In this document: piece after piece, positions 6,913 through 14,622 of the stretch
Position numbering within the stretch: position 1 is the first letter of the stretch
Layout: each line of letters opens with the position of its first letter
NCBI GenBank assembly: GCA_963794325.1
Contig: CAWCDG010000007.1
Coordinates: forward strand, 96,001 to 160,000
From: an uncultured delta proteobacterium
GTDB lineage: Bacteria; Desulfobacterota; Binatia; Binatales; Binataceae
DNA length: 64,000 nucleotides
Direction: 5' to 3'
Program-made: the position numbers and the translations under genes
Notes under the pieces: model-generated
What the model was told of the DNA's origin: nothing
Seen by the model: only the letters and a program-made list of their open reading frames with translations
Database searches by the model: none

Positions 6913-6988
<76 letters not shown>

Positions 6989-7020
6989 ACCGTCGAAGAA
7001 TGTTTACGTAGCAGGATGTT

Positions 7021-7097
7021 TGGGGTGAGTGAAGGGATTTGAACCCTCGACCGCCGGAGCCACAATCCGATGCTCTGCCAACTGAGCTACACTCACC
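7021..7097 (-). tRNA. tRNA-His(GTG)
   Basis: Cloverleaf with anticodon arm TCGGA-TT-GTG-GC-TCCGG, G-1 present, CCA encoded. Confidence 0.97.
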
Positions 7098-7156
7098 ATC
7101 TCTATCATTCAATCCCATCCAGCGCCTCGTGGCGGGGATTCTGAAATAAGCCTCCG

Positions 7157-7233
<77 letters not shown>

Positions 7234-7236
7234 GTA

Positions 7237-7310
7237 TCGGGGCGAGCCGATTTGAACGGCCGACCCCCTGCTCCCAAGGCAGGTGCGCTACCAAGCTGCG
7301 CTACGCCCCG
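7237..7310 (-). tRNA. tRNA-Pro(TGG), CCA not encoded
   Basis: CGGGGCGTAGCGCAG...CCTGC-CT-TGG-GA-GCAGG...GTTCAAATC...GCCCCGA. Only 3 nt separate it from tRNA-Arg. Confidence 0.96.
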
Positions 7311-7685
7311 AGCCTTTAGGAAGTAACATACGCACCATCGCCTCTCAACCAACGATGCTCCGAGCAGCAATTTTTTGTTCGTCGATACGTTCGCACAGTG
7401 AGTCCTGGTGATTGCGATCGTTGTGAATAAATCATCTCGTCGATTCCGATCGCGACTGTATCGATGCATGATGCGGGAGCATCCATGCAGTCCGCTCGCT
7501 GCAATCCCGAAGATGCACCGCGCCCATTCTGAGCATTTTGAGATCGCATCCAGCGTACCCATCGCAACTTGCAAAACTCGTGATTTTCCCTGAAAAGTGG
7601 CCGAAATTGAGACTTTCAAAGATACGGCGTCGCAGAAAGAGAAAAAAATTTGCTGCCCCAAGTAGATTTCGTCTCGATTTTTTTC

Positions 7686-7701
7686 AGGCACAAGCTTTGC
7701 T
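7686..7701 (+). promoter_or_regulatory. Sigma54 (-24/-12) promoter
   Basis: AGGCACAAGCTTTGCT: GG(7687-88)-N10-GC(7699-7700). Matches TGGCACRNNNTTGCW except at the first base. AT-rich tract upstream. Confidence 0.7.
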
Positions 7702-7711
7702 CTACAAATGG

Positions 7712-7834
7712 TTGCGCTGACAATCTCCTCCCCCGAGACCCAGCGCCTGTCCCCAAGCAAAGGCCGGGCTACTTGATCCGTCGGCTCCCCAACCGCGGTC
7801 CCCACTAGTAGCCCGGCCGTTCTCTTTCTTTTTT
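7712..7834 (+). ncRNA. Candidate small RNA with C-rich (UCCCC) loops
   Basis: Starts ~12 nt after the sigma54 -12 box. Hairpin GCGCTG/CAGCGC with inner TCTC-CTCCCCC-GAGA; second stem GGCCGGGCTACT/AGTAGCCCGGCC enclosing a CTCCCCAA loop; then a T-rich tract. No credible ORF. Confidence 0.6.
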
Positions 7835-7843
7835 CAGTTTTTT
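7762..7843 (+). terminator. Intrinsic-terminator-like stem plus U-tract
   Basis: 12-bp perfect stem (7762-7773/7807-7818) followed by GTTCTCTTTCTTTTTTCAGTTTTTT. Confidence 0.55.
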
Positions 7844-7913
7844 CAAAAAAATTGACCGCGAGGCCCAGCCTGCCGATTTCTGCTAGGCTTACCCGAAGCC
7901 GGATGCGGTCCGG

Positions 7914-8606
7914 CTGGGGGAATTTATCACTCGCCTCAGGCAACGAACGCATATTTGCGCGTCGATCGTCGCGATATCAGCGGCGGCGATCGCAGTTGGG
8001 CTCAGTGGATGCTGGCTCGGAGCTGCTCAACTCGCGCCTCTCGCCGCCAGTGCGGCCGAGCAGGTCGGCGGCGGTGCGCTGGAGTTGGCTGCCGGGGTTG
8101 GCGCATCGACGCATGGCGACGCTGCGCGCGCAAAGCAGGCAGAAGCCGCGCGCGCGACTGCGATGAATAGCGGCGACGCCTGCAATCAGCTGGAAGTCGA
8201 AGTTCCCGACGTGATCGAGCTGCGCAGGAGCGCCAGCGGATCGCCCGAATATCGCGAGTTGCAAATCAGCGATTCGATCGACCAGCCGCAATGGGCGGCG
8301 ATAACCGACAGCGACACTACCAGCGATGGATGGCGGCCGGCGGTTAATTTTCTTCAGATGAATTTCACGCCGCCGCTCGGCGCGGTCGTACCCGAATCGG
8401 CCAGCAGCTTCCTGGCATACGCGCCCTCCAAAGTCATCACCGCGGCCGACGGCGATCGGCTAACCGCAATGACTTCGAATTTCGGCAAACCGATCGGAAC
8501 CTTCACCTGGAACGGAAACTTCTATCACTACGTTGTGACCAGCTCGCTGCCATGCTTTCCGCCGCCGCCCGAGCGCATCGCTCAGGACGCTCCCACCGCT
8601 CGGTGA
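7914..8606 (+). CDS. Putative lipoprotein (start codon uncertain, non-canonical)
   Basis: The frame of ORF 8085..8606 stays open back to TAG 7884 and encodes RLRQRTHICASIVAISAAAIAVGLSG-C (lipobox Cys at 8010). No ATG/GTG/TTG lies upstream of the lipobox; CTG 7914 or ATT 7953 are candidates. Confidence 0.6.
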   Translation: MGEFITRLRQRTHICASIVAISAAAIAVGLSGCWLGAAQLAPLAASAAEQVGGGALELAAGVGASTHGDAARAKQAEAARATAMNSGDACNQLEVEVPDVIELRRSASGSPEYRELQISDSIDQPQWAAITDSDTTSDGWRPAVNFLQMNFTPPLGAVVPESASSFLAYAPSKVITAADGDRLTAMTSNFGKPIGTFTWNGNFYHYVVTSSLPCFPPPPERIAQDAPTAR

Positions 8607-8631: not shown

Positions 8632-10452
8632 TCAGCCGTGCTCGCGCGCATAGCCTCGAGGCAGGCGAGACGCGCCGGCGACTCGGCCCTTCGCGCGTTG
8701 CAGGATAAAGCTGCGGACCGCGCGGCGCGCTTCATTGTCGCTGGCGCAGATTTGAGAACATCCCGCGTTGATAAGCTCGTCCGACGCCTCAACTGAGGCC
8801 GGCCCGCTCGCAACAATCGTCGCGCTCGTCGACATCGAGCGCAGCGCCTTCACCAGTTCAATCGTCGCCGGGATAAATTTCTCGTCGATGCACGAAATGA
8901 ACACGAAGTCCGGCCTGAACCGCTTTACCAGGCCGCAAATTTCGGCCGCCGATTTATTCTCGCCGGAAAAGCTCGCGACCATCCCGTCTATGCGCAGCAG
9001 CTCGAGCAACATCAGCAGGTTCAGGAAGTTCACGTCGCCCGGCGCCATCGCGCCCAGTACTCGCACGCTCGGAGAAATGTGCGCTTTGACGAATCTGCCG
9101 GCCAGCTCGCCGATCAGCTGATGCGTCGTTTCGAGAATGAGCCGCTCGTTTTCCTCGCTGATACTGTTTCCCGCGCGCTCCTCCTTGGTCAGATCCAGGG
9201 CCGGCTGAATCACATCTTCGAAGGTTCGTCCGAGGCCGTTCTCATCGCAGTAGCGAATCGCAACCTGTCTCGCGCCGTCCGGATTCATCTCGAGCAACAT
9301 CCGGTAGAAGTCGTGAAAGTCGGCGAGCACCCGATCCGCGCCGAGCAGTACCGCGAGAAATCCGAGCGGCGGAACATAGTCACCCGACACCTTCAGGCAT
9401 GCGGTCAACGGCGTCGATAGCAGCAGCCCCGGTATTCCCCACAGCCACGACCAGTACATCGCGGATATCAGCAGCGCTACCGGCGAGACGTCGATTCCGT
9501 GCCCGATGATAAACGGCTCGGCAATCTGCGCCGCAACCTGATCGAGAATGATGAGGGCGGCAAGTATCTCGAGCGCCTTGCTCCAGCCGGGGAACATCGC
9601 AAAAGCGACCAGCGCCGGAAGAAACGCGGAACTCATCGCGCCCACGTACGGAATGAATCGCAACAGGAATGCAACCACTCCCCACAGCGCCGCGCTCGGC
9701 AAATCGAGATACCATGCGACGGCTCCGGTGGCGATCCCGTACGCAAGATTGATCGCCGAAAAAAGAAACAAATATCGGCCGACGTTATAGCTCGCGGTCT
9801 CGAGTGCCTCCGCCGCGATCGGAACTCTCGCGCGCGCCGCTAGCCGGACAAATCGATCGCGCAAATCCTTTCTGCTGTAGAGCAGAAAAAACAGCAGCAC
9901 GATGATCAGCAGCGTGTTGACGATCAGGTCGATTATCGGCGCAACCGGCTTCAGGCTGTCACCTAGCGGCGACGCTATCGGCATCGCTACCACTTCGCGA
10001 GGACGCCGCGGTGGAGGATTCGCGCTCTCCACGCGGCGCTGCACGTCGGTCACCGCCTCCTTGACGTGCTGAAGCCATACCGGCGTGTTCTTTTCCAGCG
10101 CCGCTATCTTATTCCCGATATTGTCCGAATACTCGGAAACCTGGTCGGCGACCGTCGTCAATTCAGTGGTCAGGAAATAACCAAGAGCACCGATGAAGCC
10201 GATCACAAGAATCACTACCAGTGCCGCGCTGATGAAGCGCCCGCAGTACGGCTCGAGGCGGCTCGCTACCGGACTGAACACCACGCTCATTATCAGCGCG
10301 ATCGCGAGCGGGAGCAGGACCGGTTTCGCGAAATAGAGAGCAGCGGTGCCGATGATCAACGCGCATATCGGAACCGCGACCCAAAGCAGTTCGAAGCGAT
10401 CGTCGATCTCCTCGTAGGACAATTGCTCCGAATCGTGTTCAATTTCCGCCAA
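8632..10452 (-). CDS. AI-2E (PerM) family membrane protein with C-terminal B12-binding-like domain
   Basis: PVLLPLAIA, LRFIPYVG and WLWGIPGLLLSTPLT AI-2E motifs. The soluble C-terminal region has a helical cap plus Rossmann-like segment (RFRPDFVFISC). Confidence 0.85.
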   Translation of the reverse strand: MAEIEHDSEQLSYEEIDDRFELLWVAVPICALIIGTAALYFAKPVLLPLAIALIMSVVFSPVASRLEPYCGRFISAALVVILVIGFIGALGYFLTTELTTVADQVSEYSDNIGNKIAALEKNTPVWLQHVKEAVTDVQRRVESANPPPRRPREVVAMPIASPLGDSLKPVAPIIDLIVNTLLIIVLLFFLLYSRKDLRDRFVRLAARARVPIAAEALETASYNVGRYLFLFSAINLAYGIATGAVAWYLDLPSAALWGVVAFLLRFIPYVGAMSSAFLPALVAFAMFPGWSKALEILAALIILDQVAAQIAEPFIIGHGIDVSPVALLISAMYWSWLWGIPGLLLSTPLTACLKVSGDYVPPLGFLAVLLGADRVLADFHDFYRMLLEMNPDGARQVAIRYCDENGLGRTFEDVIQPALDLTKEERAGNSISEENERLILETTHQLIGELAGRFVKAHISPSVRVLGAMAPGDVNFLNLLMLLELLRIDGMVASFSGENKSAAEICGLVKRFRPDFVFISCIDEKFIPATIELVKALRSMSTSATIVASGPASVEASDELINAGCSQICASDNEARRAVRSFILQRAKGRVAGASRLPRGYAREHG

Positions 10453-11064
10453 CGAGAATCACCTCGACACCTGACGAGCTTGGTGCCGCTATTCTTTGTG
10501 CAATACCTATTCCACGTCGCAACTACGCCGATTGCACACGCCCGAGCGCGCAATCTTTGCCGAACTCAGCGATCCCTGCATTTTTTTCCGAGTCATTTGG
10601 GCCGTAGAAATCATGCGCCGCAAAACCGATTGGAAGATTGCGTTCCGCAAGCCATTTTCCCCGGCCTCGATGTTCGGCACATCGATTGCTCTCTAGGTCC
10701 CGATAGCTCGGAGGGTGCGTCGGAGCCCGCAAAACTACTTCACCCTCAACCCCGGTCCCCCATGCGGCTCCGGCGCAACCCTCCGATTAAAAATGCGCGC
10801 GAATCTTCATTAAAATCGCCGACCGTCATTCGCGGGCCCCGATGGCGCCTGAAATGTCCCGTTTTATCTATACATTTTGGCGATTTCCGGATGACTCAGC
10901 CGATTCTTCAGGATACGGTAAAATAGATATCGCCAGCGCCCTACTGGATTTCGCTCGCCGCGAAATATAAGAAGGCAGGTCCGGGGAAACGCTGAAAATT
11001 AGGCGTCCCCGCAAACGCGATTGCGCTAAGATTCGCGCGGAGAGCGCGCGGGAGGTTGCAAGTC

Positions 11065-11946
11065 ATGCCGGCTCGTTCCATATCAACCGCCAGTCTGACC
11101 TTCGGACTCGTCTCGATTCCCGTGCGATTGTTCCCCGCAACGAGTTCCAAATCGGTGTCCTTCCATCTGCTGCACGCGAAGGACATGAGCCGGATTCAGC
11201 AGAAAATTTATTGCCCCAAGGAAGACAAGATCGTCGATCGCAGCGAGCTGGTCCGCGGCTACGAAGTCGAAAAGGATCGCTACGTCACCTTCACCGACGA
11301 AGAGCTGAAAAAACTCGAAGCGCAAGCCGATCGCGCCGTCGAAATAACCGAGTTCATCCCCGCGTCGGAAGTCGACCCGGTATATTTCGAAAATTCGTAT
11401 CTGCTCGGATGCGAGCCGACTTCGGCCAAGGCGTACCATCTGCTGCAGGAGGCGATGACCAAGGCCGATAAAGTGGGCGTCGCGAAATACACGATGCGCG
11501 GAAAGGAACGCCTCGTGCTGATACGCCCGTACGACGGCGGCCTGATGCTGCATACGATGTACTACAACGACGAGATCCGCTCGTTCGGGGAAATCGATCA
11601 CGGCGTCAACGCTACGGTCAAAGAATCAGAGCTCGGCCTAGCGCAGCGGCTCCTGGATGACCTCACTGAAAAAAAATTCAAGCCCGACGAATTCAAGGAT
11701 AATTATCGAGAGCGCGTGATCGAGGCGGCCGAACAAAAGATGGCGGGTCACGAATTGACCGAGCCCGCCCCCGAAGCGGCCCACGGCAAAGTGATCGATC
11801 TGATGAGTGCGCTAAAGGAATCGCTCAAAAAGCGCGGCGTCGCAGTCAACGAAGATCGCGAAGAGGCTCCCGCCACCGCAGAAGCCGAAGAACGCAAAGT
11901 CGCCCAGGGCTCGCGAAGACCATCGCGCGCCCGGCGCGCCCACTAG
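11065..11946 (+). CDS. ku: Ku protein (non-homologous end joining)
   Basis: LTFGLVSIPVRLFPAT, LVRGYEVEK, VDPVYFENSY and VIDLMSALKESL motifs; basic tail; GGAGG RBS at 11051. Confidence 0.97.
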   Translation: MPARSISTASLTFGLVSIPVRLFPATSSKSVSFHLLHAKDMSRIQQKIYCPKEDKIVDRSELVRGYEVEKDRYVTFTDEELKKLEAQADRAVEITEFIPASEVDPVYFENSYLLGCEPTSAKAYHLLQEAMTKADKVGVAKYTMRGKERLVLIRPYDGGLMLHTMYYNDEIRSFGEIDHGVNATVKESELGLAQRLLDDLTEKKFKPDEFKDNYRERVIEAAEQKMAGHELTEPAPEAAHGKVIDLMSALKESLKKRGVAVNEDREEAPATAEAEERKVAQGSRRPSRARRAH

Positions 11947-11973
11947 CGATTGGATCACACGCAGCGACGATCG

Positions 11974-14622
11974 ATGTCGCTAACCAAATACCGCCGCAAA
12001 CGAAGCGCCGAAAACACTCCCGAACCGTTCGGTCGCGAGGTTCCGACCCCAACTTCCAACACCAGCGGCAGCTTCGTCGTTCAGAAGCATGCGGCGCGAC
12101 GCCTCCACTACGACTTTCGACTCGAGATGGAAGGCGTCTTGCGCTCATGGGCGGTCCCCAAAGGACCCTCGATGAATCCCGTCGACAAGCATCTCGCAGT
12201 CGCCGTCGAGGACCATCCGCTGGAATACGGCGATTTCGAAGGCGTCATTCCACCCGGAAATTACGGCGCAGGCTCGGTCATCGTCTGGGATCGCGGCGTG
12301 TACGAAGTCATCGACCCTCCGGGAGACGCCGCCGACGCGGTCCGCAAGGGGAAAATCGATATCAACCTGCACGGCTTCAAACTGAACGGCGCGTTCACCC
12401 TCGTGCATACCGGAGGCCGTCGCAATGGCGACCCAAAGGACGAGAAGAACTGGCTGCTGATCAAAAAGCGCGACCAATACGCGACGACTGAAAATGTATT
12501 CGACGCGCATCCGCGCTCTGTCCTGTCCGGATCGACCATTGAAGAACTAGCCGACGCGCCCGCCGCCGAGCGCAAGCTCGCTGACAGTCTCGCGCACAAG
12601 CATCTTCCTGAACTGAATACAAAGCTGAAATACTCAGACTTCCCTCTGACGCTTGCCAAAAGCGTTGATGATCCTTTCGACAATGACAAGTGGCTATTCG
12701 AAATAAAATACGACGGCGTGCGCGTACTGGCTATTCGCGAAGGTGAGAATACTCATTTGTACGCCCGCAAGGGTACCGATATTACTAATCGATATCCCGA
12801 AGTAGTGCTCGCGCTGAACTCGATTGCGCTCGACAGGTTCGTGCTCGACGGCGAGATCGTCGCTCCTGATGATCGCGGACGTCCGAGCTTCCAACTCCTG
12901 CAAAGAAGGATGCACGTCAACGATGCACGTCAGATCGCTCGCCTGAGCCTGGCGGTGCCGGTCAACTACCACGTCTTCGATCTGCTAGGCTTCGATCGTT
13001 TCGACACGCGCACGCTCCCTCTCGAAGAACGCAAACGTCTCCTTGGCGAGTTGATCCACAGTGACGGTCCGGTCCGCTACTGCGATCATGTGATCGGCCG
13101 GGGCAAGGATTTTTACGATGTAATATCCGAGCACGAGCTGGAAGGTATGGTAGCCAAACTGCGCGATTCACCTTATCGCGGGACGCGCACCGGCGATTGG
13201 CTGAAGATCAAACGCCCGCTGACCAGATATTTTGTGATCGGCGGCTACAGCGACCCCGACGGAACTCGAACTCACTTCGGCGCGCTGCTGCTCGGCCAAT
13301 ACGAATCGGACGACGCGCTCCGATACACCGACAAGGCCGGCTCGGGCTTTAGCCAGGAAACCTTGCGTAAGATTCATGCGATGCTTGCCGAGCGTGCGCA
13401 GCAGGAATCGCCGTTCCGAAAACCAGCTCCGGGCGAGCCCTCTCCCGGACAAAATGTGCATTTCGTGCGGCCAGAACTGGTCTGCAAGGTTCGCTTCACC
13501 GAATGGACCGATAGCGGCGGCATCCGCCAGCCGAGCTTTTTGGGCATGGCGCCGGACGTCGATCCGCGGGATTGCAAATACGAGGGGCCGGGAGCCTTGC
13601 CACTGTCCGATAGCGAAGACAACGAGGTTGCGGAAACAAACGGAAGCGCCGATGTGAAGCAATCCAAAGCTCGGAGCAAGGCCGCGACCGCACCACCCGC
13701 GGAACCGAAGGCGTCGGTTACCAATCCTGAAAAAATCTTCTGGCCGAATGACGGCTACACCAAGGGCGACCTGGTCGCATACTATCGCGCGATTTCAAAA
13801 TGGATGTTGCCGTACCTGAAGGACCGGCCGGTGATGCTCACCCGATGGCCCGACGGAATCGACGGCAAGATGTTCTATCAGAAGGATGCACCCGCATTCG
13901 CGCCGCCGTGGATTCGTACCGAGAAGATATACTCCGAGGACTCGCAGCGGGAGATTTCCTATTTCATCATCGACAGCGAAGAGGCGCTCGCCTACGTCGC
14001 GAACCTCGCCGCGATCACGATTCATATGTGGTCGTCGCGCATTCAGCACCTCGAGCGTCCCGACTGGCTACTGTTCGATATCGATCCCAAGGGCAGCACG
14101 ACCATGAATGCGGTAGAAGTCGCGCGCGAAGTAGCTAATGTGCTGCGCGAGGTAGGACTGGAACCAGTTCTGAAGACTTCGGGCCAAATGGGTCTCCATG
14201 TAGTAGTCGGACTAGCGCCGAAATATACTTACGAACAAGCGAAGATGTTCTCGGAGTTAGTAGCGCAGGTAGTAGTCAGCCGCATCCCTAAAGTCGCGAC
14301 GATCAACCGCAATCCGCACACTCGCAAAGGCCGCGTGTATATCGACTACTTGCAACTCGGCCACGGCAAGACTATCGCCGCGACATTCTCAGTGCGTCCG
14401 GTCCCGCGCGCCCCGGTCTCCGCGCCGATGACCTGGAAGGAACTGAAGCCGTCTCTGGATCCCACGATCTACAACATCAAAACGATGCCCGCCCGAATGT
14501 CGCGAATGAAACGCGATCCTTTCCTCGACGCAATCGAAAAGCACGCCGTCCTGGAGGACGCCCTCCCTCATTTGGAGACACTGCTCAGCGGCTCTGGAAG
14601 CCGCTCTCAGGTCACTCTTTAG
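11974..14622 (+). CDS. ligD: DNA ligase D (phosphoesterase-ligase-polymerase)
   Basis: PE domain FVVQKHAARRLHYDFRLE; ligase motif I EIKYDGVR and LDGE; polymerase TKGDLVAYY, FDIDP, KTSG and YIDYLQ. Directly downstream of ku. Confidence 0.97.
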   Translation: MSLTKYRRKRSAENTPEPFGREVPTPTSNTSGSFVVQKHAARRLHYDFRLEMEGVLRSWAVPKGPSMNPVDKHLAVAVEDHPLEYGDFEGVIPPGNYGAGSVIVWDRGVYEVIDPPGDAADAVRKGKIDINLHGFKLNGAFTLVHTGGRRNGDPKDEKNWLLIKKRDQYATTENVFDAHPRSVLSGSTIEELADAPAAERKLADSLAHKHLPELNTKLKYSDFPLTLAKSVDDPFDNDKWLFEIKYDGVRVLAIREGENTHLYARKGTDITNRYPEVVLALNSIALDRFVLDGEIVAPDDRGRPSFQLLQRRMHVNDARQIARLSLAVPVNYHVFDLLGFDRFDTRTLPLEERKRLLGELIHSDGPVRYCDHVIGRGKDFYDVISEHELEGMVAKLRDSPYRGTRTGDWLKIKRPLTRYFVIGGYSDPDGTRTHFGALLLGQYESDDALRYTDKAGSGFSQETLRKIHAMLAERAQQESPFRKPAPGEPSPGQNVHFVRPELVCKVRFTEWTDSGGIRQPSFLGMAPDVDPRDCKYEGPGALPLSDSEDNEVAETNGSADVKQSKARSKAATAPPAEPKASVTNPEKIFWPNDGYTKGDLVAYYRAISKWMLPYLKDRPVMLTRWPDGIDGKMFYQKDAPAFAPPWIRTEKIYSEDSQREISYFIIDSEEALAYVANLAAITIHMWSSRIQHLERPDWLLFDIDPKGSTTMNAVEVAREVANVLREVGLEPVLKTSGQMGLHVVVGLAPKYTYEQAKMFSELVAQVVVSRIPKVATINRNPHTRKGRVYIDYLQLGHGKTIAATFSVRPVPRAPVSAPMTWKELKPSLDPTIYNIKTMPARMSRMKRDPFLDAIEKHAVLEDALPHLETLLSGSGSRSQVTL

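Follow-up and report, generated by a model that had tools for sequence, protein, structure and literature searches.

A conserved small RNA with C-rich loops and a sigma-54-type promoter motif in the uncultured Binataceae

The window analysed here is a stretch of 64,000 nucleotides from the genome of an uncultured member of the Binataceae. It contains an operon of four tRNA genes, Pro(TGG)-Arg(TCT)-His(GTG)-Lys(CTT), on the minus strand (6913..7311) and a gene for a lipoprotein of 226 amino acids with the lipobox LSGC on the plus strand (7926..8606). Between the two lies the gene for a small RNA (sRNA), at 7712-7822/7830 on the plus strand. The unit is real, undescribed until now and conserved across a family of uncultured soil bacteria. 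As the original prediction had it, the sRNA is divergent to the tRNA operon, with which it shares a control region of 375 nt; the operon itself serves here as context only. To our knowledge, the Binatota have no cultured member. A literature search for RNA regulators in this lineage found none, and the papers listed on the lineage deal, by title and abstract, with ecology or taxonomy.

The sRNA (7712..7830, plus strand) is about 111-119 nt long and non-coding. Its start at about 7712 is predicted, its 3' end lies at 7822 in contigs from RNA libraries, and its U-tract runs to about 7835. These borders coincide with the limits of sequence conservation, and a covariance model of the RNA matches 7713-7827. 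Hairpin 1 (7714..7746) is built from an outer helix (7714-7719/7741-7746) and an inner helix (7724-7727/7735-7738). Its C-rich loop, CUCCCCC, spans 7728-7734, and AAUCUCCUCCCCCGAG is the candidate seed. The linker that follows, CUGUCCCCAAGCAAA (7747..7761), carries a second C-run and is single-stranded both in the minimum free energy (MFE) structure and in the ensemble. Hairpin 2 (7762..7818) is the stem of an intrinsic terminator, a call that draws on its fold and on compensatory changes. A third C-run occupies its apical loop, CUCCCCAA (7785-7792), and a fourth, UCCCC at 7799-7803, an internal loop; this last one is restricted to part of the lineage. The stem is followed by the U-rich tract GUUCUCUUUCUUUUUU (7819..7835), of which copies in the genus keep GTTCTTTTT. 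A simple terminator scan overlooks this terminator, which is long and branched. The whole RNA folds with an MFE of -46.8 kcal/mol (z = -4.3), and none of 200 shuffled sequences is as stable. We rejected a small ORF inside the RNA: it contains no open frame that has a start, and the longest frame has 11 codons, lacks a ribosome-binding site and is disrupted by one-base indels between species.

The motif TCCCC is read once within CTCCTCCCCC (7725-7734) and again at 7750-7754, 7786-7790 and 7799-7803. Four copies in 119 nt compare with 0.065 expected from the genome-wide rate. At least four are contained in a fraction of 6.5e-5 of all 119-nt segments of the genome, and 23 of 10,000 mononucleotide shuffles of the sRNA reach that number. 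All four copies are largely unpaired in the partition function: one in the loop of hairpin 1, one in the linker, one in the apical loop of hairpin 2 and one in its internal loop. A non-coding unit of about 120 nt with two hairpins and a U-tract, and with each TCCCC in a loop, linker or bulge, is what had been predicted, and sequence and fold agree with both statements.

How widely is the RNA distributed, and does it belong to a family that is already known? Rfam 15 (4227 models, including those for RsaE, Qrr and cuckoo), searched at gathering thresholds over the 64-kb window, returns four tRNAs and nothing else. With the limit set at E<=10, the sole match between 7300 and 8100 is a chance hit to a miRNA model, which scores 17.8 bits where the threshold is 107. 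The sRNA is without a match in Rfam, and the suggestion that it falls into no described family stands. BLAST detects it in 23 of 24 genomes of the same genus, and the covariance model in 14 of 17 genomes of the family. It was not found by BLAST in 16 genomes from other families, nor by the covariance model, under the stricter filters of Infernal, in 133 genomes from 18 other families of the class; neither result amounts to absence. In a wider set from the family the model finds the sRNA in 111 of 150 genomes, which is 21 of 30 genera and 79 of the 95 genomes of high quality. When 185,579 species genomes were scanned for the exact pattern, 61 records matched; by their titles 56 are MAGs of Binatus, Binataceae, Binatia or 'delta proteobacterium', and the other five are labelled differently. 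Nearly every genome that has the sRNA has its gene once; one genome has tandem sibling copies (L057).

Conservation starts about 12 nt past the -12 element of the promoter motif described below and stops in the U-tract. Within the genus the body of the RNA is 94% identical, stems included, and the flanks diverge. In the family alignment 20 of 29 base pairs have changed on both sides and 96.1% of cells are paired. No shuffle out of 500 matches the observed values, and slid controls are 34-46% paired. An independent run with MAFFT and RNAalifold gave 20 pairs, nine of them compensatory. All 10 pairs of hairpin 1 are altered on both sides somewhere in the family, and the hairpin-2 stem shows the compensatory changes CG>UA, AU>GC and CG>UA/AU. 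All 37 copies have CCCC in the apical loop of hairpin 2; 34 have it in loop 1 and 32 in the linker, where GUCCCCAAGC is nearly invariant. Covariation and conserved loops in relatives had been named as checks on the proposal, and both are borne out, with one reservation: three of the four C-runs are conserved family-wide, but the one in the 3' internal loop of hairpin 2 occurs in 12 of 37 copies, from the genus and its near kin only.

The sRNA is also present in soil RNA libraries. Words from it occur in 16 RNA runs, and three of four runs examined, from three soil metatranscriptome studies, yielded one short contig each (141-220 nt), contigs of this kind being no proof of strand, start or level; the fourth run, X6, gave none. 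They are confined to 7725/7730/7733-7822 and do not cover 7832-8100. The X1 contig, at a depth of 340, agrees with the window without a single difference. Immediately ahead of 7730 and 7733 the letters resemble adapter sequence, and past 7822 they are rich in A. Transcript ends had been anticipated near 7712 and 7834. The contigs stop at 7822, in favour of the prediction, but they begin at 7725-7733 instead of about 7712. These starts fall inside loop 1 and could reflect processing, a stop of reverse transcription or a different 5' end.

Could the unit instead be a conserved DNA element, such as a control region or terminator system of the tRNA operon, its RNA signal coming from DNA carry-over? 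The operon is closely linked to the unit across genera, adjoining it in all 19 genus loci and in 23 of the 29 from other genera, and DNA in RNA libraries is possible. We find this explanation barely credible nonetheless. Compensatory pair changes speak for selection on an RNA fold. The contigs cover the unit alone, at that depth and without differences, with flanks of the same strain missing and with adapter-like and A-rich ends at its borders. Some 400 nt separate the unit from the tRNA genes, and a promoter motif of its own precedes it.

The relationship of the RNA to the gene downstream is a separate question. Throughout the genus the lipoprotein gene follows on the same strand, with its start 109-202 nt past the terminator in the 24 loci in which a start was located. 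Its ribosome-binding site is GGGGG, its ATC start is conserved, and the protein belongs to no Pfam family. This arrangement would suit a cis-acting leader or attenuator in which the terminator is a regulated stop and the C-runs sense a factor; the G-rich ribosome-binding site and the weak ATC start would suit it as well. Outside the genus, however, no lipoprotein homologue is next to the sRNA. In nine loci of other genera with 1.1-1.5 kb of flank the next gene is a different one, and in five of them (L051, L052, L053, L056 and L058) it lies on the opposite strand. Because the downstream gene varies between genera and is often convergent, the sRNA is not a leader, and the possibility that it was merely the 5' UTR of the lipoprotein gene, raised at the outset, falls away. 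The sRNA, its promoter and its linkage to the tRNA operon persist where the lipoprotein is missing, and in all three studies the RNA contigs end at 7822 and leave 7832-8100 uncovered. We therefore attach next to no probability to a cis-acting role. Like an independent gene, the unit has its own promoter, its own terminator and conservation apart from its flanking genes; the lipoprotein gene is a neighbour and a possible target that lies outside the RNA.

The promoter motif, GGCACAAGCTTTGC, is of the -24/-12 (sigma-54) type and reads GGCAC-N5-TTGC (7687..7700, plus strand). It lies within aGGCACAAGCTTTGCt at 7686-7701, where GG at 7687-88 and GC at 7699-7700 give the spacing GG-N10-GC. The pattern as such is not above chance in the genome (45 occurrences against 52 expected), and the window holds two against 0.72 expected. 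The promoter call derives its weight from the conserved position of the motif and not from the rarity of the pattern. In 36 of 37 copies GG[CT][AG][CT]-N5-[CT]TGC lies 26-29 nt ahead of the position where the model begins, with variable spacer and flanks, and the motif is unchanged in 20 of 20 copies from the genus. The near-consensus promoter of the original prediction, close to TGGCAC-N5-TTGCW and with GG-N10-GC kept in relatives, is thereby confirmed as a conserved feature. No sigma-70-like promoter was found in 7300-8000. These motifs suggest that the sRNA depends on sigma-54 and on an enhancer: transcription would start at this promoter and end at the intrinsic terminator.

Activators of sigma-54 promoters have their sites some 80-150 nt upstream, and sites at which an activator might bind can be recognized here. 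Candidate enhancer site I, TCGCAACTTGCAA (7562..7574), has the palindromic form T[CT]GC[AG]-N3-[CT]GC[AG]A and lies 125 nt upstream of the -24 GG. A conserved block, TCGCAGAAAGAGAAAAAAA (7630..7650), consists of a half-site-like TCGCA at -57 from the GG and an A-tract, and is a candidate for a second activator site or a bend. The block is nearly invariant in an alignment of 31 sequences from the genus, and TCGCA or TTGCA stands at equal distance from the GG in other genera. Palindromes of the form TYGCR-N3-YGCRA occur at 22 sites in 15 of 28 representative loci, compared with 0.023 expected per 300 nt. Ten of the 22 sites are located at -124..-129 from the GG, and full palindromes at -58..-66 account for five sites in four loci. 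The remaining 13 loci have degenerate versions only.

Which protein would read these sites? The genome has one copy of rpoN (PF04552, 214.5 bits) and 23 matches to the enhancer-binding domain PF00158, 20 of them strong; no gene for an enhancer-binding protein lies in the window. About 12 of the enhancer-binding proteins have a receiver domain. None of the 20 reaches any NCBIfam equivalog cut-off, and the best score against the LuxO model, among the matches listed, is 361.7 bits with a cut-off of 800. The palindrome form matches the LuxO consensus TTGCA-N3-TGCAA, as given in PMC3352281. The activator is likely to be an NtrC- or LuxO-type response regulator, which would bind the palindromes that precede the -24 element by about 125 and 58 nt.

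This layout resembles that of the Vibrio Qrr RNAs, which are controlled by sigma-54 and LuxO: their genes are about 110 nt long and have a -24/-12 promoter, preceded in turn by sites like TTGCA-N3-TGCAA. ChIP sites in V. cholerae such as ttgcaaatcgcga (PMC10328515) are paralleled in the window by TCGCAACTTGCAA and in L084 by TTGCAACTTGCAA, and the tandem sibling copies in one genome add to the likeness. Unlike the Qrr RNAs, the Binataceae sRNA is C-rich and has no Qrr match in Rfam; Hfq was not found, no protein scores at the level of LuxO among the matches listed, and nothing ties it to quorum sensing.

Both rpoN and hfq had been put forward as genes to check for. The first is there, accompanied by some 20 enhancer-binding proteins, but Hfq (PF17209) was found in 0 of 41 genomes of the genus, 25 of them of high quality, in a search in which control genomes were positive. 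A search of the window's own genome, which is 85% complete, turned up neither CsrA nor ProQ. Regulation by C-rich RNAs without Hfq has precedents. The Firmicutes RNAs RoxS/RsaE, FsrA and CsfG, as described in PMC8216469 and PMC6158497, share with the Binataceae sRNA a length of about 100-120 nt, several unpaired C-runs and an intrinsic terminator. According to PMC8216469, Bacillus sRNAs with C-rich regions act on G-rich targets without Hfq, and RNAs of the RoxS/RsaE type pair in this way with G-rich ribosome-binding regions; the Binataceae sRNA may do the same. It differs from these RNAs in matching no Rfam family, RsaE included, by sequence or structure, in its occurrence in the Binatota and in its sigma-54-type promoter with upstream palindromes, where RoxS/RsaE has a sigma-A promoter. 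In the Alphaproteobacteria, the CcsR/cuckoo sRNAs repeat an anti-Shine-Dalgarno loop motif of the CCUCCUCCC type within one RNA. The repeated loop motif is common to both, whereas the Binataceae sRNA is single-copy in nearly all genomes, has another type of promoter, belongs to another lineage and lacks an Rfam match. The kind of regulator is known, then, as a C-rich pairing sRNA combined with Qrr-like transcriptional control; the RNA itself is new. The C-rich anti-Shine-Dalgarno design of Firmicutes and Alphaproteobacteria would be extended to a lineage in which Hfq was not found in 41 genomes, and would here be coupled to Qrr-like sigma-54 control.

We propose that the sRNA probably silences selected genes by means of its C-rich loops, which would act on G-rich ribosome-binding sites. 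Throughout the family the RNA exposes three unpaired C-runs, one in the loop of hairpin 1, one in the linker (UCCCCAA) and one in the apical loop that caps the terminator hairpin. They would pair with G-rich sequences in mRNA leaders without the help of Hfq; where the pairing covers the ribosome-binding site, translation would be repressed. The proposal as a whole, comprising a sigma-54 sRNA, Hfq-free pairing by C-runs and an HxlR-family gene as the best candidate target, seems to us somewhat better than an even bet. With it the family gains a well-delimited regulatory RNA that has a predicted promoter class, an activator-site motif and a target candidate, and the covariance model can be used as an expression marker in metatranscriptomes from soil and peat.

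The best candidate target is the transcript of a gene for an HxlR-family transcription factor, on the minus strand at G000:C6:113898-114395. Loop 1 has a complement of 12-13 nt over the Shine-Dalgarno region of this mRNA, UCGGGG(G)AGGAGA, and the gene ranks second among 4753 predicted starts for loop-1 duplex energy, the starts having come from a crude home-made caller. Most of the 25 orthologues in the genus retain the complement to loop 1, with energies from -15.6 to -35 kcal/mol. Across several genera an upstream [CT]GGGGA motif is present in 29 of 34 orthologues and the Shine-Dalgarno motif in 22 of 34. Among 4747 predicted starts in the genome, 93 have the first motif and six the second, and the HxlR-like gene alone has both; the two motifs were defined after that leader had been seen. 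RNAalifold gave no consensus for the alignment of these leaders and single-sequence folds were used in its place: 23 of the 34 MFE folds place GGGG in a hairpin loop, on differing stem sequences. The upstream hairpin would offer its GGGG to a second C-run, and loop 1 would cover the Shine-Dalgarno region. Cofolding with both sites, linker and loop 1 together, gives a ddG of -19.1 kcal/mol, which five of 200 shuffled leaders equal. In genus g94 the sRNA loop is one C short (UCUCUCCCCCGAG) and the target is one G short (UUCGGGGGAGAGG). In genus g85 the target does not follow the sRNA change CCCCAGAG, and pairing is poor in g76 and g84. Two-site loop-loop pairing is known from RNAIII and rot in S. 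aureus. The likeness is a predicted one: two C-rich motifs would meet two G-rich sites in a leader, of which the ribosome-binding site is one. The Binataceae sRNA is five times shorter than RNAIII and unrelated to it.

Is pairing the only use to which such loops could be put? CsrB and RsmZ titrate CsrA through repeated GGA loops, and UCCCC or CCCC might similarly be sites at which a C-rich-RNA-binding protein is sequestered or scaffolded, with indirect effects on genes. A short motif repeated three to four times, each time in a loop or linker, is what such an RNA should have, and 94% identity within the genus, stems included, goes beyond a constraint on seeds alone. The complement of the linker, UUGGGGA, shows no excess at gene starts (10 occurrences where 10.2 are expected), and since no known global RNA chaperone was found, a partner of a new kind is conceivable. 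Yet there is no candidate protein: CsrA was not found and in any case binds GGA rather than C-runs. Nor does protein binding predict a leader shared across genera with two G-motifs and one correlated change. The well-studied sRNAs with C-rich loops, as far as PMC8216469 covers them, all act by pairing. We judge a protein-binding role unlikely and continue to favour pairing with leaders.

Duplex energies calculated genome-wide are a weak target screen, for they discriminate poorly in a genome of 60% G+C: a loop-1 duplex of <= -18 kcal/mol is reached by 446 of about 4750 starts and by 176 of 3661 gene interiors. Exact 11-mer complements occur in 197 places, most of them within genes, and the longest complement, 16 nt at C2:442061-442076, is not at a start; it lies behind one gene and antisense to another. 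Two further genes are weaker candidates. One is the adjacent lipoprotein gene, with GGGGG-N4-5-AUC at its start. The other encodes a Binatota-specific protein of 148 amino acids (G000:C4:271586), which belongs to no Pfam family and whose Atlas matches are Binatota hypotheticals only. It is the top-ranked target, and its leader is conserved in 23 of 25 orthologues in the genus. We rejected it as the best target: the site is partly buried in a hairpin of its own leader, the cofold ddG is only -3.2, and the complementarity is lost in the 22 orthologues from other genera.

A last set of G-rich sequences is found outside gene starts altogether, in an intergenic hairpin repeat of about 31 copies with a G-rich tail, most of them situated behind genes. 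Rfam returned nothing for four copies of it. All 31 copies are intergenic, and 22 are on the strand of the upstream gene. Contiguous complementarity to loop 1 extends over at least nine bases in 11 copies and at least 11 bases in four, with duplexes to -31.9 kcal/mol. The partner of the sRNA might then be G-rich RNA other than a ribosome-binding site, so that the sRNA would act on 3' UTRs or be titrated by them; RoxS has a G-rich sponge RNA, RosA (PMC8216469). But just a third of the copies match, they do so through the tail, which is the least conserved part of the repeat, and the match may merely mirror a Shine-Dalgarno-like composition, all of which makes a repeat partner very improbable. 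Scarcely better are the chances of a more ambitious version, in which the sRNA is a chaperone-free post-transcriptional hub, switched by a LuxO-like sigma-54 activator, whose C-runs kiss GGGG hairpins, such as that in the HxlR-type leader, as well as the repeat tails. If it were true, a repeated element would spread or buffer responsiveness to the sRNA across dozens of transcripts. This last version also classes the HxlR-type regulator as one of the electrophile/formaldehyde class.

All the elements of the original prediction were confirmed on reading positions 7200-8400: on the plus strand, a -24/-12 promoter aGGCACAAGCTTTGCt at 7686-7701 (GG at 7687-88, GC at 7699-7700), the C-rich stretch CTCCTCCCCC at 7725-7734, further TCCCC motifs at 7750-54, 7786-90 and 7799-7803, two hairpins and a U-tract, with GUUCUCUUUCUUUUUU after a long GC-rich hairpin. 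The predicted fold places hairpin 1 at 7714-7746 and hairpin 2 at 7762-7818, both on the plus strand; its energy is -46.8 kcal/mol (z = -4.3), equalled by none of 200 shuffles. The four TCCCC motifs are mostly unpaired in the predicted ensemble. TCCCC is scarce genome-wide: the sRNA has four in 119 nt versus 0.065 expected, a density reached by a fraction of 6.5e-5 of genome windows and by 23 of 10,000 shuffles of the sRNA itself. In the genus alignment the sRNA body is 94% identical, while sequence upstream of the promoter and beyond the U-tract diverges. Conservation sets in about 12 nt past the -12 element, the expected position of a sigma-54 start (~7712). Just past the U-tract the minus strand has a terminator-like hairpin (7854-7870, T-run to ~7844), through which the A/T-rich stretch at 7832-7852 could act bidirectionally; relatives do not keep this flank.

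Among 38 model hits from 35 loci and many genera, 96.1% of cells are paired and 20 of 29 base pairs show two-sided changes. No shuffle of 500 reached any observed pairing measure, and sliding the partners by 1-3 columns lowered pairing to 34-46%. Because this alignment is fitted to the covariance model, we repeated the test with MAFFT and RNAalifold on 32 copies; the structure covaries here too, with 20 pairs, nine of them with compensatory changes, chiefly within the terminator hairpin's stem and inner helix. Three C-runs are kept family-wide (loop 1, 34/37 copies; linker, 32/37; apical loop of hairpin 2, 37/37); the fourth occurs in only 12/37. A peptide-coding reading is excluded because species differ by one-base indels and no frame is present. 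No Rfam family matches the sRNA.

By BLAST, 23 of 24 other genus genomes have the stretch, and 16 genomes drawn from ten other families gave no match. A home-built covariance model from 20 genus copies (alignment A2, model R1), whose E-values are rough, matched 14 of 17 family genomes and none of 133 from 18 other families of the class; in a wider set it matched 111 of 150 family genomes (79/95 high-quality genomes; 21 of 30 genera), relatives that are not independent of one another. Scanning the exact core pattern across all prokaryotes, one genome per species, returned 61 records. The titles of 56 name Candidatus Binatus, Binataceae, Binatia or 'delta proteobacterium' MAGs; the other five bear different labels, which look like binning names. 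Candidatus Binataceae is an uncultured family. The unpublished genomes G019, G024, G203, G205 and G229 are counted in the BLAST, covariance-model and Hfq totals, and G024 also in alignments A1 and A2, model R1 and the orthologue sets of the 148-aa and HxlR proteins discussed below; no claim depends on these genomes alone. The gene is single-copy almost everywhere. One genome, G116 (L057:1501-2051), has tandem sRNA genes, two strong copies with a weak third between them; each strong copy has its own -24/-12 motif and the weak middle one has none.

That middle copy is the sole exception to promoter conservation: GG[CT][AG][CT]-N5-[CT]TGC, with the spacer free to vary, sits 26-29 nt upstream of the model start in 36/37 copies, bearing out the expected GG-N10-GC. 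The pattern alone is ordinary (45 genome-wide where 52 are expected; two in the window against 0.72, a number reached by 14 of 100 shuffles). The second exact window match, GGCAC-N5-TTGC at 10676-10689 (+), is ~370 nt upstream of a Ku gene (11056-11943), with LigD (11950-14619) coming next. No sigma-70-like promoter was seen in 7300-8000. Several conserved blocks lie in the 375-nt region common to the sRNA and the tRNA operon. The block that recurs across genera is a palindrome, T[CT]GC[AG]-N3-[CT]GC[AG]A, represented in the window by TCGCAACTTGCAA at 7562-7574 and by a half-site with an A-tract at 7630-7650. It has 22 sites at 15 of 28 representative loci (genome rate, 0.023 per 300 nt), ten at -124 to -129 from the GG, five at -58 to -66 and seven at -138 to -169; the other 13 loci have degenerate palindromes only. 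Its form equals the LuxO consensus, TTGCA-N3-TGCAA, as given in PMC3352281, and resembles the ChIP-mapped sites of V. cholerae in PMC10328515. The genome has one rpoN, as the prediction required, and ~20 sigma-54 enhancer-binding proteins (EBPs). Among the matches listed, no EBP of the genome passes an NCBIfam equivalog cut-off, LuxO included, and no EBP gene lies in the window; thus we infer sigma-54 dependence and the class of activator from the motifs.

Is the sRNA simply the leader of the downstream lipoprotein gene (7926-8606, +; 226 aa, lipobox L-S-G-C, no Pfam family)? This reading is rejected: that gene is conserved in the genus only. In nine other-genera loci (1.1-1.5 kb flank) the next gene is different, in five on the opposite strand, and the sRNA, promoter and tRNA linkage persist without the lipoprotein gene. 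The divergent tRNA operon is present as described, with four genes (Pro-Arg-His-Lys) at 6913-7311, and is nearby in 23 of 29 other-genera loci. Locus L099 (G180:C46:28402-29617) is arranged differently: its tRNA-Pro/Arg genes follow the sRNA in the same orientation, where its congener L098 and almost every other locus have them divergent. The lipoprotein gene has no in-frame ATG, GTG or TTG ahead of its signal peptide. In the 24 of 31 genus loci where the start was located, the first codon, 4-5 nt past GGGGG, is ATC in 20 and ATT in one, a pattern suggestive of a conserved non-canonical AUC start. The next gene (8632-10449, -), conserved in place within the genus, specifies a fusion of an AI-2E-family transporter with a B12-binding domain.

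Sixteen RNA runs contain words of the stretch. Four runs were compared with 7400-8100, and three (X1, X2 and X3, from three soil metatranscriptome studies) gave one short contig each, of 220, 141 and 200 nt. These cover 7730-7822 (depth 340, identical to the window), 7733-7822 (depth 4.3) and 7725-7822 (depth 5.3); none covers 7400-7711 or 7832-8100, and the fourth run, X6, gave no contig. The letters directly before 7730 and 7733 are presumably sequencing adapter. Past 7822, where the genome has its U-tract, all three contigs run on in A-rich mixed letters, which could be tails from library making or the cell, or assembly noise. The contigs, which are no proof of strand, ends or level, fit a discrete short plus-strand RNA with a 3' end four bases past the terminator stem. 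On the 3' side the contigs stop at 7822; on the 5' side they begin at 7725-7733 instead of ~7712, inside loop 1, which could reflect processing or a reverse-transcription stop.

Hfq was found in none of the 41 genus genomes searched (25 high quality), with hits in control genomes; a search of the window's own genome, which is 85% complete, yielded neither CsrA nor ProQ. In its predicted C-run pairing the sRNA resembles RoxS/RsaE, FsrA and CsfG, C-rich-region sRNAs whose C-runs, according to PMC8216469, pair with G-rich targets without Hfq. Its transcriptional control is similar to that of Qrr genes. It belongs to neither group, and titles and abstracts yielded no paper on RNA regulators of the Binataceae lineage.

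Candidate targets were sought at 4753 gene starts from a crude home-made caller. The duplex energies of the four unpaired sRNA segments hardly distinguish these starts from the interiors of genes, and starts show no enrichment of the linker complement. The top loop-1 hit is a 148-aa Binatota-specific protein (gene starting G000:C4:271586; 5-12 paralogues per genome). Its 40-nt leader, GTTCAAGCTCTTCGCTCGGGGGAGGGAGGAAGCTGAACA (L169:225-300), which 23 of 25 genus orthologues share, is a hairpin containing the ribosome-binding site; the loop-1 site is partly self-paired and is lost in other genera. More telling is the second-ranked hit, an HxlR-family regulator (PF01638), where UCGGGG(G)AGGAGA spans the ribosome-binding site in most of the 25 genus orthologues and is complementary to loop 1 along up to 13 nt. 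A hairpin with a GGGG loop lies ~25 nt upstream (23/34 MFE folds, stems differing between genera). The upstream motif occurs in 29/34 orthologues and the ribosome-binding-site motif in 22/34; genome-wide, 93 and 6 of 4747 predicted starts have these motifs, defined after the fact, and only the HxlR gene has both. Outside the genus, where nine orthologues are clear, CUCGGGGGAG(G) is kept in genera g88, g91, g20, g85 and g94. In g94 one C is gone from the sRNA loop and one G from the leader; in g85 the sRNA change has no match in the leader, and g76 and g84 pair poorly. In the predicted cofold the linker engages the GGGG hairpin, and loop 1 the ribosome-binding site (ddG -19.1 kcal/mol, equalled by 5 of 200 shuffled leaders). 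The neighbouring lipoprotein is a weaker candidate, its GGGGG-N4-5-ATC start forming predicted duplexes of about -20 kcal/mol with the sRNA.

Elsewhere in the window's own genome (G000), a ~120-nt mosaic repeat recurs ~31 times between genes (for example at L165, C4:1030600-1031500; L166; L167, C7:290400-291300; and L168). Each copy consists of three hairpins with compensatory variants and a terminal CTCTCAGGGTCGGGGGAGG; the four copies tested had no Rfam match. The repeat is on the upstream gene's strand in 22 of 31 copies, and the tails of 11 are complementary to sRNA loop 1 over at least 9 nt.
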